64,000 nucleotides of DNA from an uncultured Gemmatimonadota bacterium (GCA_964345885.1 CAYFSW010000033.1:45584-109583), one strand, 5' to 3'. Counted from the stretch's first letter, positions 27,803 to 37,114 are shown. Notes: generated by a model not told the origin, from the letters alone. A program made the numbers and translations.

Positions 27803-28987
27803 ATGGGAGATTCGTACGACGTGGTGGTGGTGGGTGGCGGGATCGCCGGCGTCGGCGTAGCGCAGGCGGTTGCTGCGGCCGGGCATTCGGCCCTCGTCCT
27901 CGAGAAGACGGCACTGGCAGCAGGGACGTCGAGCAAGTCGAGCAAGCTCATCCACGGCGGCCTGCGCTACCTCGAGAGCTACGAGTTCTCGCTCGTGCAC
28001 GAAAGCCTGGATGAGAGGGCGCTGCTCCTGCGTAACGCGCCCGATCTCGTCGAACTCAGGCCCTTCTACATCCCCGTCTACTCGAAGACGCGCCGGCGGC
28101 CCTGGCTGGTCCGGGCCGGCCTCTCGCTCTACGCGATACTCGGCCGGCTGCGGGCGCAGGTCCGCTTCAGGAAAGTACCGCGCTCCGATTGGGACGAGCT
28201 CGACGGTCTCAACACCGAAGACCTTGACGCCGTTTTCCGGTACTACGACGCCCAAACCGACGACGCGCTGCTGACACAGGCGGTGATGGCCTCGGCGGCG
28301 AGCCTTGGTGCCGAGCTGGCGATGCCCGCCGAGCTCGTCCGCGCCGAGCTCAGGTCCGACGGCTGCGTCGTCCACTACGCGCTCGACGGCAGTGAGAACG
28401 CCTGTGAGGCCCGCGTCCTAGTGAACGCCGCCGGCCCCTGGGTCAACCGTGTGGCGGAGCGCATCGACCCACAGCCACGTTGCCTCGATATCGAGCTCGT
28501 TCAGGGCAGCCACATTATCGTCAACGGGACCGTCGAGCGGGGACTCTACTACGTGGAGGTGCCACGCGACGGGCGCGCCGTCTTCACCATGCCTTGGAAG
28601 GGAAAGACGCTGGTGGGAACGACCGAGACGCGCTTCCGCGGCGACCCCGACAATGTCCAGCCTCTTCGCGCCGAGAAGAACTACCTGCTCCGCGTACTGC
28701 ACCGCCATTTCCCGCGCTACCAGGATCAGTGCACGGTAGCGGACGCCTTCGCCGGTCTCCGCGTGCTGCCGTCCGGCCCCGGCCATGCCTTTCATCGGAC
28801 GCGCGAGGTCATCCTGCTGAGCGATCGCGATAGCGACCGCGATCCGCCGCGCGTGCTGAGCATCTACGGAGGCAAGCTCACCGGTTACCGCGCGACGGCC
28901 GCGAAGGTGCTGCGCCGCATCGAAGCGGCGCTACCGAGGCGCAAGCCGGTGGCGGACACGCGGCGATTACGGCTATTGCCGCCCTAA
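27803..28987 (+). CDS. glpD: FAD-dependent glycerol-3-phosphate dehydrogenase/oxidase-like protein (short form)
   Basis: VVGGGIAG, GTSSKSSKLIHGGLRYLE, YYDAQTDDA, VNAAGPW, GSHIIV, LVGTTE, FAGLRVL, GGKLTGYR. Confidence 0.8.
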   Translation: MGDSYDVVVVGGGIAGVGVAQAVAAAGHSALVLEKTALAAGTSSKSSKLIHGGLRYLESYEFSLVHESLDERALLLRNAPDLVELRPFYIPVYSKTRRRPWLVRAGLSLYAILGRLRAQVRFRKVPRSDWDELDGLNTEDLDAVFRYYDAQTDDALLTQAVMASAASLGAELAMPAELVRAELRSDGCVVHYALDGSENACEARVLVNAAGPWVNRVAERIDPQPRCLDIELVQGSHIIVNGTVERGLYYVEVPRDGRAVFTMPWKGKTLVGTTETRFRGDPDNVQPLRAEKNYLLRVLHRHFPRYQDQCTVADAFAGLRVLPSGPGHAFHRTREVILLSDRDSDRDPPRVLSIYGGKLTGYRATAAKVLRRIEAALPRRKPVADTRRLRLLPP

Positions 28988-32921: not shown

Positions 32922-33140
32922 CTACTTCGGGAATTCTTCGGGGTCAAGGCCCCGGACGGCGCGACCAGTCTCACCGGCGGCCGTCGACCAAGCTAGCAGG
33001 GCGGCAGTCTCCTCCTCAGCCTCTTGTCGGCCGTGCTCGCGTCCCTCAGTGGGCGGCAGCGCCTCGCGACCGCGGACCAGCGGCCAGGCCGCGTAGCCGA
33101 CAGCCAGAATCCCAACGATCATCGCCAGCAGCGCAGTCAC
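32922..33140 (-). CDS. Small single-TM protein, CcmI/CcmH N-terminal-like
   Basis: GTGA overlap with the upstream stop; MTALLAMIVGILAVGYAAWPLVRG followed by an acidic helix. Confidence 0.55.
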   Translation of the reverse strand: MTALLAMIVGILAVGYAAWPLVRGREALPPTEGREHGRQEAEEETAALLAWSTAAGETGRAVRGLDPEEFPK

Positions 33141-34984
33141 CCGAGCGACCTCCCTCGTAACGCGAGCGATAGCAACACCAGCACTCCACCCAGCCAAACG
33201 AGCCCCGCCAGAAAGCTAATCGAGAGGCGGCAGTCGACCGCCTCGCTTCCCCGCTGCGAGCTGAACTGCACTATGACATCGTGCAGGACGCCGCGCCGGA
33301 CGGCCGGTGTTCTGACCTGGCGGCGTCCCATCCAGTCGTACGTCACGGCGGCGGTGACGATCTCGGGTGGCGCGTCACCCCTGTCGAGCCTGAAGCTGGC
33401 CACCTGCCTCTCGAGGTGGTCCACCCTATAGCGCGAGAGTCCCAGGTAGGTGACCGAGATCCTCGCCCCCAGCCGGCTCGGCAGATTCAGGGACTCACCC
33501 GGCTCAACCGTCCGCATCGCGGTGCGGGTCAGCGCACCCGCGGCGATGCCCAGGACGATCAGGGCGGCCCCGAGATGGGCCAGCGCCGACGACCTCCGAC
33601 GACGTGCCCGAGCCCGGAACAGCCGTAGTGCAACGCCCAGATCGGAACCCGCCAGCGCCCTCCGGGCCGCTCGCAAGCGGACCATATCGGCGGCGAAGCC
33701 GGCGAGCACGGCGGCGGCCAGGCCGCCGGCGACGGCGAACTCCGCTGCCCTCCAACCGCTGAGGCCGTAGGCGGCGACGACCCCGACGGCCGCTAGGAAC
33801 GCCGCCGCGGGCCAGACCCGCTTCCACCCTCCCGCCCGTCGCTGCACGGACCAGGCTACGATCCCGGCCAGGGCGATGAACGCGATCGGCCACGCGACGT
33901 AGGGCCAGCGCGACCCACCCAGCAGCGCCCAGAGCGCTGCCACGCCGGCCACACCCAAGCCCGACAGACTGCCCAGCAGGGCGAAAGGCCCATAGCCGGG
34001 AATCGGTTGAGGAGCCCCCGCGACCCTCCCCAGAGGCGCGAATCCCGCCAGCCCGCCCGAGACGACCCCGACGGCAAAACCCGCCGCCCACGGTGCCACC
34101 GTTAGCCCGGCACCCGGCGCCGCCAGCAGCGATGCGGCAGCTCCTATGGCTGCGGGGAAAAGGGCCACACCCAGGATGCGCTGCCAGCGGACGGCCCAGG
34201 CGGGCGCCGCCGCGCCGCCCGGCGCGTGCAGGTACGAAATGGCCAAGGCCCAAGCAGGGACATTAACCGCGACGGACGATAGCCCGCTGGCGCCAAGCAG
34301 TTGCCCTTCGCTAGCGTAGGCGCGCCAGACTGCAGCCAGCACGGCGGCCGTCAACAATCCGGCGCCCAGCGTCACCGCCCCTCGCTCCCCGCGCCCCTCA
34401 CCGCGCGACTCAACCAGCTGTCCGCCGAGGGAACCTGCGAAGACGAAGGCGGCGCATCCGACCGCTAGATACATCGCCCAAGTCTGGAGCTGCCACGTCA
34501 CGTCCTCGACCTCCAGGGGTAGTCCCAGGCCGGCCACCGCGGGAACGGCCAGCTGGGCAAAAGGACGAGCCCGGGCCAGGACCAGCAGTCCCAGAATGAC
34601 CAGGGCCGCCAGCGTCCCGGTCCGTGCCGCCGAGCTTCGAGTTCGTTCCAGCCTCTGGCTGAGCGCGGCGAGGGCTGCCACTAGGAAGGTGATCAGCAGA
34701 GCGCCGCCCGCCGGGGCGCTCCACAGGGCGGCCAGCCTCCAATACCACGGATGCTGAAAGCCGGAGTGCGCCGCTACGTAGACGTACCTGAGCTCAACAA
34801 CCACGAGAGCATGGCCGAGGCCAGCGGTAGCGAGGAGGAGCAGCAGCGCTGTGGTGTCGGCGGCGCGACCGCCGAGAACCGCAAGGCTCCCGCGCCGCGC
34901 CCAGCCGCCAGCGATTGATGCAGCGGCGGCGAGCCCGGCCAACGGCGCCGCCGCCCATAGGCAGAGCTCGCCGAATTCAGCCAC
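33137..34984 (-). CDS. Divergent CcmF/NrfE-like polytopic membrane protein
   Basis: YVAAHS...PWYWRLAALWSAPAGG, RPF...GLGL, YLHA, LAHLG, C-terminal LVWLGG align by eye with CcmF; WWD motif absent. Confidence 0.8.
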   Translation of the reverse strand: MAEFGELCLWAAAPLAGLAAAASIAGGWARRGSLAVLGGRAADTTALLLLLATAGLGHALVVVELRYVYVAAHSGFQHPWYWRLAALWSAPAGGALLITFLVAALAALSQRLERTRSSAARTGTLAALVILGLLVLARARPFAQLAVPAVAGLGLPLEVEDVTWQLQTWAMYLAVGCAAFVFAGSLGGQLVESRGEGRGERGAVTLGAGLLTAAVLAAVWRAYASEGQLLGASGLSSVAVNVPAWALAISYLHAPGGAAAPAWAVRWQRILGVALFPAAIGAAASLLAAPGAGLTVAPWAAGFAVGVVSGGLAGFAPLGRVAGAPQPIPGYGPFALLGSLSGLGVAGVAALWALLGGSRWPYVAWPIAFIALAGIVAWSVQRRAGGWKRVWPAAAFLAAVGVVAAYGLSGWRAAEFAVAGGLAAAVLAGFAADMVRLRAARRALAGSDLGVALRLFRARARRRRSSALAHLGAALIVLGIAAGALTRTAMRTVEPGESLNLPSRLGARISVTYLGLSRYRVDHLERQVASFRLDRGDAPPEIVTAAVTYDWMGRRQVRTPAVRRGVLHDVIVQFSSQRGSEAVDCRLSISFLAGLVWLGGVLVLLSLALRGRSLG

Positions 34985-35008: not shown

Positions 35009-35476
35009 CTATTTTAGTTCGCCCCGCGTGCGCGCCTGGTCCAGCGCCCACACCACCGCTTCTTCCGGCGTCTCGGCCTCGGGCACAGGCAGGTTGGTGA
35101 GATCGGACTTCAGACGTATAAGAGGCACCCCGAGCTTCAGGCAGAGAGCCGCCTCCGACATCGTCCCCCAACCTCCGGCGATGGCGATCACGGCATCGGA
35201 CGTCTTCACAACGAGCACGTTGCGAGCCTCTCCCAAGCCTGTAGGGATCGGGATCGTAATCCCAGGATTCGCAGTCCGAACGTCGTCGCCCGGGAGTATT
35301 CCTACAACCACACCACCGGCGTCGCGGGCACCGACCGCCGCCGCCTCCATGACGCCGCCCAGACCCCCGCACACAAGTATGGCGCCTTCCCACGCCACCA
35401 ATTCCCCCACTCTTCGCGCCACACCCGCCAAGGTGTCATCACACAGATGTCCCCCGATCACTCCGATCCGCAACAC
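35009..35476 (-). CDS. TIGR00725 family (SLOG/LOG-like) protein
   Basis: IGVIGG, CGGLGGVMEAA, GILPG, TGLGEARN, IAGGWGTMSE. Confidence 0.9.
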   Translation of the reverse strand: MLRIGVIGGHLCDDTLAGVARRVGELVAWEGAILVCGGLGGVMEAAAVGARDAGGVVVGILPGDDVRTANPGITIPIPTGLGEARNVLVVKTSDAVIAIAGGWGTMSEAALCLKLGVPLIRLKSDLTNLPVPEAETPEEAVVWALDQARTRGELK

Positions 35477-35620: not shown

Positions 35621-37114
35621 CTACTTCGCCTCCGCCCACGCCGCCGCCGCCCTAACCGCGCGCCGCCAACCGCTCAGAAGCTGTTGCCGCCCCTCGTCCG
35701 CAAGCGCCGGCTCAAAGCCCCGCTCCAGCTTCTGCACCTCGCCCAGCTCGTCGGGCTCCGACCAGTACCCCGTCGACAGCCCCGCCAGTGCTGCCGCGCC
35801 CAGCGCCGTCGTCTCGACCATCGCCGGGCGGCCCACCGGGATGCCCGCCACATCCGCCTGGAACTGCATGAGCCAGTTGTTGGCCGCGGCACCCCCGTCG
35901 ACCCGCAGTTCGCGCACCGGCTGACCCCAGTCGGCGGCCATCGCCTCCATAAGGTCGCGGGCCGAGTAGGCCATCGCCTCCAGCGCCGCACGTACCAGGT
36001 GTGCGCGGCCACTGCCGCGCGTGAGGCCTACCAGCGTGCCCCTGGCATCCGCCAGCCAGTGCGGGGCGCCGAGCCCAACAAAGGCAGGCACGAAGTATAC
36101 CCCATCGTTGGACTCGAGCGAGCGGGCCAGCTCTTCCGTCTCGGCTGCGCTATCCACGAGGCCCAGCTCATCCCTCAGCCACTGCACCGCCGCGCCGGCG
36201 ATGAAGATCGAGCCCTCGAGCGCGTAGGCCGCTTCGCCGCGCGCGCCGCACGCCACCGTCGTCAGCAAGCCGTGCCGCGACGGAACGACCTCATCGCCCG
36301 TGTGCACGAGCAGGAAGGCGCCCGTCCCGTACGTGCACTTCGCCTGTCCCGGCGCCCAGCAACCCTGACCGTACAGCGCCGCCTGCTGGTCACCCATCGC
36401 CGCCGCCACAGGCGCCTCGAACCCCACAGCCTTCGAATCGCTCGTCCCGAATAGGCCGCCCGACGGCTGCACCTCGGGTAGCACTGCCTCAGGGACACCG
36501 AGAAGCCCGCAGAGCTCCGGATCCCAGCGCCGCTCGTCGATCCGGAACAGCTGGGTGCGCGAGGCGTTGGTCGGTTCCGTCGCGTGGACCCGGCCACCGC
36601 TGAGCTTCCAGATGACCCAGCTGTCGATCGTGCCGACGGCCAGCTCTCCGGACTCGGCACGCTGGCGCGCGCCCGGCACATGCTCCAGCAGCCAGGCGAT
36701 CTTGGTGCCGGAGAAGTAGGGATCGATGACCAGCCCTGAACGCTCGCGTATCAGAGTTTCGTGTCCGCCGTCCTTGAGCGCCTGGCACTCGGGTGTCGTT
36801 CGCCGGCACTGCCAGACGATGGCATGGTATACCGGCTCACCGCTCTCCCGGTCCCAGAGGACCACGGTCTCACGCTGGTTCGTGATCCCGACCCCGGCAA
36901 CGTCGGAAGGGGCCAGACCGCCGGCCTTCAGCGCCTCCCCCACCACGACCTGGACCGAGCGCCAGATCTCTTCCGCATCGTGCTCAACCCAACCCGGCTG
37001 CGGGTAATGTTGCTCGATCTCCCGATACGCCCGGCCGACGACCTTCCCTACCCTGTCAATGGCGAGCACCGTCGTCCCGGTCGTGCCCTGATCGATGGCG
37101 AGGATCACTGCCAT
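35621..37114 (-). CDS. glpK: Glycerol kinase
   Basis: ILAIDQGTTGT, PGWVEHD, GITNQRET, DPYFSGTK, TEPTNASRT, GDQQAAL, KCTYGTG, YALEGS, PAFVGLGAPHW, RVDGG. Confidence 0.97.
   Translation of the reverse strand: MAVILAIDQGTTGTTVLAIDRVGKVVGRAYREIEQHYPQPGWVEHDAEEIWRSVQVVVGEALKAGGLAPSDVAGVGITNQRETVVLWDRESGEPVYHAIVWQCRRTTPECQALKDGGHETLIRERSGLVIDPYFSGTKIAWLLEHVPGARQRAESGELAVGTIDSWVIWKLSGGRVHATEPTNASRTQLFRIDERRWDPELCGLLGVPEAVLPEVQPSGGLFGTSDSKAVGFEAPVAAAMGDQQAALYGQGCWAPGQAKCTYGTGAFLLVHTGDEVVPSRHGLLTTVACGARGEAAYALEGSIFIAGAAVQWLRDELGLVDSAAETEELARSLESNDGVYFVPAFVGLGAPHWLADARGTLVGLTRGSGRAHLVRAALEAMAYSARDLMEAMAADWGQPVRELRVDGGAAANNWLMQFQADVAGIPVGRPAMVETTALGAAALAGLSTGYWSEPDELGEVQKLERGFEPALADEGRQQLLSGWRRAVRAAAAWAEAK

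Follow-up and report, generated by a model that had tools for sequence, protein, structure and literature searches.

Heme occupies two sites in the cytochrome c synthetase CcmF. One is external and catalytic; the other is a buried b-heme whose role, as a reductase for incoming heme, has been argued mainly from mutants. In the Escherichia coli protein, H173 and H303 (P-His1 and P-His2) lie beside the WWD motif of the external site, while H261 and H491 (TM-His1 and TM-His2) are the ligands of the b-heme in the transmembrane (TM) region (PMC3884852). This TM-heme sits in the inner leaflet and is joined to the external heme through a tryptophan relay, W214 and W251 in Thermus thermophilus numbering, of which W214 contacts the TM-heme; in CcsBA, the TM-His site is the entry of a heme channel, and the same channel is blocked in CcmF by these two tryptophans (PMC10663686). 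A role outside cytochrome c maturation is also on record in this heme-handling superfamily, since the PF01578 family member HemX regulates the abundance of glutamyl-tRNA reductase, GtrR (PMC5801465). Here, we describe a 615-residue CcmF-like paralog coded on the minus strand (33137-34984) of a 64,000-nucleotide stretch of DNA, hereafter the window, from an uncultured Gemmatimonadota bacterium (GCA_964345885.1, CAYFSW010000033.1:45584-109583). The paralog has lost the external heme-attachment site, keeps the two histidines of the buried one, is under purifying selection and is coupled to a small single-pass partner. Our literature searches on WWD-less CcmF paralogs and on CcmF in Gemmatimonadetes returned no description of such a protein. 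Databases label these proteins as CcmF, as "cytochrome c biogenesis factor" or as hypothetical; the first two labels overstate their capability.

The states of the active-site motifs were taken from the agreement of three independent alignments: an hhalign comparison of family profiles, a 132-sequence MAFFT alignment and a by-eye alignment made for the initial annotation of this DNA. First, the canonical LHPP segment bearing P-His1 corresponds to Q167-T168-W169 (34478-34486, minus strand, as for all features of the window below unless stated), with glutamine, or glutamate in relatives, taking the place of the histidine. Second, the canonical WWD segment WGGYWAWDPVEN is represented by G227-N241 (GQLLGASGLSSVAVN; 34262-34306), which has suffered a four-residue deletion, has neither tryptophan nor aspartate, and forms a short turn and the start of TM7 in the structural model. 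Third, the P-His2 loop, SVHAF in canonical versions, is shortened by eight residues, weakly conserved and devoid of histidine (34097-34123), with leucine at the P-His2 position here and leucine or a gap in relatives. Neither hhalign nor the MAFFT alignment recovered WWD, H173 or H303, and all three losses proposed by the initial annotation therefore stand. Across the paralog family we found no conserved periplasmic histidine, cysteine or methionine that might act as a substitute heme ligand; no member of the window's family has the external heme site any longer. Having lost the WWD loop, P-His1 and P-His2, the paralog cannot mature cytochromes c, and we are confident that it does not act as a cytochrome c synthetase.

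The buried site has had the opposite fate. TM-His1 is kept as H253 (34226-34228) within SYLHAPGG, and TM-His2 as H470 (33575-33577) within SALAHLGA, seven residues past an Arg-rich cytoplasmic stretch. These are the only histidines invariant in 19/19 metagenome homologs and 18/18 genome orthologs, which bears out the retention of the H261 and H491 equivalents that had been read by eye. The best-conserved segment of the whole protein is the cytoplasmic loop directly past H253 (H-A-P-x-G, followed by W263, W267 and R269). TM1-4, TM7-8 and TM14 are also highly conserved, and what is left of the two external loops is conserved least; about 70 alignment columns are invariant in total. The paralog has thus been preserved best around the place where a TM-heme would sit. 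Because the TM histidines that hold the b-heme in CcmF are retained, the paralog probably still binds heme b, and a single heme would be held between H253 (TM7) and H470 (TM14) in the inner leaflet.

The paralog is a derivative of CcmF, a relationship visible only through profiles and fold comparison, because the protein had no match in Pfam by hmmscan and none among PDB sequences by phmmer, and a pairwise tblastn of the genome's canonical CcmF against the window likewise came back empty. An hhalign comparison of a profile of 16 paralog orthologs with one of 29 canonical Gemmatimonadota CcmFs aligned the two over their full length (605 columns, probability 100, E 2.6e-49, 23% identity). The initial annotation had also proposed a structural comparison with CcmF: an AlphaFold2 model built from a 19-sequence alignment (predicted local distance difference test, pLDDT, 73.9; predicted template modeling score, pTM, 0.80) had T. 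thermophilus CcmF (6ZMQ) as its sole significant PDB match in Foldseek (E 6.5e-16, TM-score 0.71/0.74, 18% identity). Model helices read on the alignment give a 15-TM topology in which the N-terminus is periplasmic, all predicted cytoplasmic loops are Arg-rich, residues 486-592 form a periplasmic β domain (33209-33529) whose invariant motifs YLGLSRY and VASF are specific to the family, and the C-terminus lies in the cytoplasm. The Pfam check suggested at the same time was positive for one of its two domains: in a six-frame search of the genome, PF16327 (CcmF_C) matched the C-terminal third of the paralog with 46.5 bits against a cut-off of 28.7, while PF01578, the WWD-containing domain, had no match on the gene. 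The NCBIfam models gave only weak NrfE/CcmF matches over residues 1-225, with 49.5 bits as against curated cut-offs of 569 (TIGR00353) and 927 (TIGR03145). Foldseek, hhalign and PF16327 thus agree on the multi-TM core and C-terminal periplasmic domain of the CcmF fold. The open reading frame (ORF) is intact, as initially annotated, with a GTG start codon preceded by GGAG six nucleotides upstream; its product is 21.5% alanine, compared to 11.6% for the canonical CcmF of the same genome, and is also very rich in glycine and leucine.

That canonical CcmF belongs to a separate CcmABC/EFGHI system, which performs cytochrome c maturation in this genome. Contig C156 carries ccmE, ccmF, ccmG, ccmH and ccmI, the CcmF being a 673-residue protein with all motifs intact and 480 bits against 6ZMQ, and contig C147 carries ccmA, ccmB and ccmC. 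The initial annotation, which advised looking for such a copy, had rightly noted that ccmA-E are absent nearby: tblastn detected no ccm gene within the window. There is no CcmE, CcmH or cytochrome gene near the paralog, nor any association with ccmE/G/H or nrf genes; its conserved neighbors are glpK, a SLOG cluster-4 (SLOG4) gene, ltaE and recA. Thus, while it shares with the E. coli and T. thermophilus CcmFs the fold, the inner-leaflet TM-His pair, the PF16327 domain and, as described below, a CcmI-derived partner, the paralog differs from them both in its motifs and in residing apart from ccmE/G/H in a genome that already has a canonical ccmF.

A second CcmF-type gene beside the genome's ccmF recalls NrfE and other specialized CcmF paralogs. 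NrfE-type paralogs have the WWD motif and the full set of four histidines, and their substrate is a defined cytochrome, on which they act together with NrfF/NrfG, whereas the window paralog keeps none of the external site and has a partner without a tetratricopeptide-repeat (TPR) domain. One might still suppose that it is a heme lyase with unconventional residues for a special substrate, as NrfE is for CxxCK, given that the CcmF fold, the periplasmic β domain and a CcmI-derived partner persist. However, the lack of WWD, of the PF01578 match and of any conserved periplasmic histidine, cysteine or methionine, a partner devoid of the apocytochrome-binding TPR domain and a neighborhood free of CcmE, CcmH and cytochrome genes make this highly improbable.

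Every close homolog of the paralog, at 46-89% identity, belongs to an uncultured member of the Gemmatimonadota, one of them being Candidatus Kutchimonas denitrificans (Palauibacterales), and the group that carries the paralog is marine. A sample of 301 genomes from across the phylum gave strong matches in the window's own GTDB family (f1) only. Of the 31 genomes of this family, about 20, representing at least seven genera, have a full-length version without internal stops, and 28 have canonical ccmF. When identical pairs of genomes are compared, identity is 46-83% for the paralog and 74-93% for canonical CcmF. We computed the ratio of nonsynonymous to synonymous rates (dN/dS) by the Nei-Gojobori method on close pairs only (dS < 0.6), again using the same genome pairs for both genes. 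The paralog gave 0.24-0.31 (about 0.27), as compared with 0.09-0.13 (about 0.10) for canonical ccmF. The paralog is therefore under purifying selection, approximately 2.5-fold weaker than that on the real lyase, and we regard it with good confidence as something other than a decaying relic. Its faster evolution and its absence from some genera of the family are what a functionless duplicate of ccmF in slow decay would show, but the stop-free genes across at least seven genera, the dN/dS, the invariant columns and the conserved overlap with the start of the partner gene have largely refuted this reading, and we consider it very unlikely. The initial annotation had named relaxed selection with frameshifts as the signature of simple decay; the orthologs have conserved histidines and constrained sequences instead. 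One copy that looked truncated or pseudogenized (genome G316; L110, L111) was set aside as uninformative, as the gene is interrupted by runs of N and its halves occupy separate scaffold positions. The distance between them is about 1 Mb in a metagenome-assembled genome consisting of one contig, a situation that might stem from either a scaffolding artifact or masked sequence.

The paralog is translationally coupled to a gene for a 72-residue protein (32922-33140), whose GTG start overlaps the TGA stop of the paralog in the sequence GTGA (4 nucleotides), with GGGAGG seven nucleotides upstream. In this partner, a single TM helix at the N-terminus (LAVGYAAWPLVRGR) leads into a cytoplasmic tail that bears the conserved motif ALLAWSxAAGE (A-L-L-x-W-S-x-A-A-G-E in the family). 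By motif search, the arrangement recurs in 15 of 18 family loci, always with the stop/start overlap. In G307 (L041) and in P0019, the tail motif (ALLAWSVAAGEL) is fused to the C-terminus of the paralog and the TM helix of the partner is deleted. This fusion places the tail in the cytoplasm and argues for a physical association of the two proteins.

The window's partner matches no family model, and with its single TM helix it lacks the full CcmI architecture of two TM helices, a cytoplasmic loop and a periplasmic TPR domain. Nevertheless, it derives from the N-terminal membrane-anchor part of CcmI, an origin that becomes apparent through synteny. Like the first helix of CcmI, its TM helix ends in WPL followed by basic residues, and its gene directly follows a CcmF-type gene. 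In another family of the same class (f4), seven genomes (loci L091-L097 in G016, G088, G271, G234, G099, G284 and G103) have a CcmF-like ORF of 457-675 residues directly downstream of the same mtnA-like and glpK genes, followed by an overlapping small gene with the same A-L-x-Y-V-L-W-P-L-L helix. The small gene of G103 carries the loop motif EIEFDRETGKLSESDY, comparable to EIEVDHDSGNLSDADY in that genome's canonical CcmI (BLASTP E 7e-6), after which come zinc ribbons; its match to the CcmI model TIGR03142 is weak and below cut-off (18 bits, E 0.0024). The cytoplasmic CcmI loop motif, EIExDxxxGxLSxxDY, is thus present in syntenic relatives of the partner. It gives way to ALLAWSxAAGE in f1, and in f4 the tails vary between the loop motif with zinc ribbons, a zinc ribbon only, and a protein of about 32 residues with nothing more. 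The f4 synteny and the CcmI match of the G103 small gene show that the pair is an old duplicate of the CcmF-CcmI unit held at a fixed glpK-linked locus. The coupling to a small CcmI-like TM gene had thus been correctly recognized from the window; the initial annotation held for the gene itself and overlooked the glpK-linked pair in other Gemmatimonadota families.

The f4 versions differ in what they have kept. The G103 protein retains WWD and both TM histidines and has glutamine at P-His1, those of G016 and G088 keep the TM histidines, and those of G271, G234, G099 and G284 have lost both, along with much of the middle of the protein. To gauge how general such degeneration is, we ran a profile search over 1.84 billion representative proteins. 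The window's family forms eight full-length clusters scoring at least 566 bits, the next scores being at most 138 bits. We aligned 131 full-length proteins from the top 150 matches; 44 were canonical and 87 were degenerate CcmF-like clusters from metagenomes, many of them 425-530 residues long, so that at least 87 such clusters exist. The window's pattern, with both TM histidines kept and both P-histidines lost, is shared by 25 of the 87. Counting the TM histidines alone, 41 degenerate clusters have both, 32 neither and 14 only one, a co-retention with a Fisher p of 1.5e-11, uncorrected for phylogeny. Such joint keeping and loss fits the action of the two residues as a ligand pair. Several degenerate clusters have tyrosine at the TM-His2 position. 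The periplasmic β domain and the last TM helix are retained throughout.

These observations bear on the possibility that the paralog is a heme-free scaffold or pseudo-enzyme, that is, a structural or regulatory partner of, for example, canonical CcmF/H/I or another membrane complex, with its histidines kept for non-heme reasons. The glpK-linked orthologs of other families without both TM histidines are intact ORFs with a small partner, and they, the 32 histidine-less clusters and the universally kept β domain and last helix are what such a protein would leave behind. Within f1, however, no histidine other than these two is invariant, and no segment is more strongly conserved than the HAPGG loop beside them; that the two residues tend to be kept or lost as a pair also points to a joint function. 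We judge the heme-free reading rather unlikely for the window's protein.

In a maximum-likelihood tree, the window's family is a single clade set apart by a very long stem branch (1.94 changes per column), and 18/18 canonical Gemmatimonadota CcmFs fall in another (SH-like approximate likelihood ratio test, SH-aLRT, 91) with no glpK-linked paralog inside. Two WWD-degenerate metagenome proteins, P0053 and P0056, nest within the canonical CcmF clade (families f6/f8), and a strict two-clade history of canonical and degenerate forms is rejected by the approximately unbiased (AU) test (p 3e-47). Hence, CcmF degeneration occurred more than once, P0053 and P0056 indicating an independent and more recent origin of degenerate copies.

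The best explanation of the locus, to which we assign a probability of roughly 0.6, is that the paralog is a heme-b-loaded membrane module that forms a two-protein unit with its partner and senses or handles heme at the cytoplasmic face. An ancient ccmF duplication was followed by divergence and loss of the external heme-attachment site, with the CcmF membrane scaffold, the periplasmic β domain and the two TM histidines being kept. Loaded with a single heme b, the module would work together with the translationally coupled single-pass protein, and may sense or handle heme, or the redox state, by acting through the conserved cytoplasmic tail. The closest precedent, by functional analogy, is HemX, likewise a member of the heme-handling superfamily that acts outside cytochrome c maturation. 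The likeness ends there, as HemX is an 8-TM CcsA-like protein coded beside hemA, whereas the paralog is a 15-TM CcmF-type protein from an unrelated locus; the HemX-like gene of this genome is on contig C35. There, the third PF01578 gene of the genome, coding for a 271-residue protein (L061:6276-7091, minus strand), adjoins the glutamyl-tRNA reductase gene hemA in a HemX-type arrangement.

The initial annotation had proposed a repurposed heme-b membrane protein rather than a synthetase, acting as an electron conduit, a heme sensor or an inactive partner subunit. The repurposing agrees with the motif loss, the selection and the separate canonical ccmF; the conduit fares worse. The equivalent of W214, the first relay tryptophan beside the heme, is A208 in the paralog and alanine, glycine, valine or threonine across the family, while that of W251 is W245, kept in most but not all members. 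With this first tryptophan gone and no external heme site to serve as a periplasmic acceptor, sensing or handling of heme is to be preferred, and of the three options we rank electron conduction to the periplasm last in likelihood. The same substitution raises the question of heme b export or trafficking: the TM-His site might take up cytoplasmic heme as in CcsBA, and with one occluding tryptophan removed from the channel that W214 and W251 block in CcmF, heme might pass to the periplasm unattached. This idea stems from homology, and the retention of W245 in most members, the lack of an evident external heme-binding site or acceptor and the collapse of the WWD loop to a helix turn in the model speak against it; we think it improbable.

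Several points weigh against a heme-loaded sensing or handling module. The structural model is of moderate confidence, and the statistic for the TM-His pair lacks a phylogenetic correction. Most important, the persistence of intact f4 orthologs without both TM histidines implies that the function shared by the whole glpK-linked lineage may not need heme. Constraint on the paralog is distinctly weaker than that on canonical ccmF. The neighbors glpK, ltaE and recA are housekeeping genes and offer no functional clue. Finally, a search for expression found the paralog sequence in DNA metagenome runs only.

Heme binding by the paralog, if real, would mean that the TM-heme module is useful in itself, apart from cytochrome c maturation. 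A CcmF that is under selection and keeps only the buried site is a natural separation-of-function variant, and the differing losses in related lineages provide a comparative series on the purpose of each part of the scaffold. More tentatively, the glpK-linked pair could be a new functional class in the heme-handling superfamily: a b-heme module that is devoid of the synthetase site and would serve to sense, buffer or export heme b, or to relay redox state, signaling via the cytoplasmic tail of its partner, with a natural series across Gemmatimonadota in which first the external site and then the TM-heme site is lost.

Turning to the surroundings, the upstream gene glpK (35621-37114), for glycerol kinase, anchors the locus and is conserved across Gemmatimonadota families. 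Between it and the paralog, directly upstream of the latter, lies the SLOG4 (TIGR00725-type) gene (35009-35476), a neighbor with no partnership implied. It occurs at this position in f1 only and is absent from the f4 syntenic loci, and we accordingly rejected it as an obligatory partner. In the relative L058, the SLOG4 gene overlaps the start of the CcmF-like gene by eight nucleotides. The plus strand, opposite to that of glpK, codes for a DAO-family FAD oxidoreductase a few kb away (27803-28987), and in the syntenic loci L054, L057 and L058 of relatives the DAO-family oxidoreductase is paired with a GDPD glycerophosphodiesterase; the DAO/GDPD/glpK surroundings may represent a glycerol-phosphate metabolism neighborhood.

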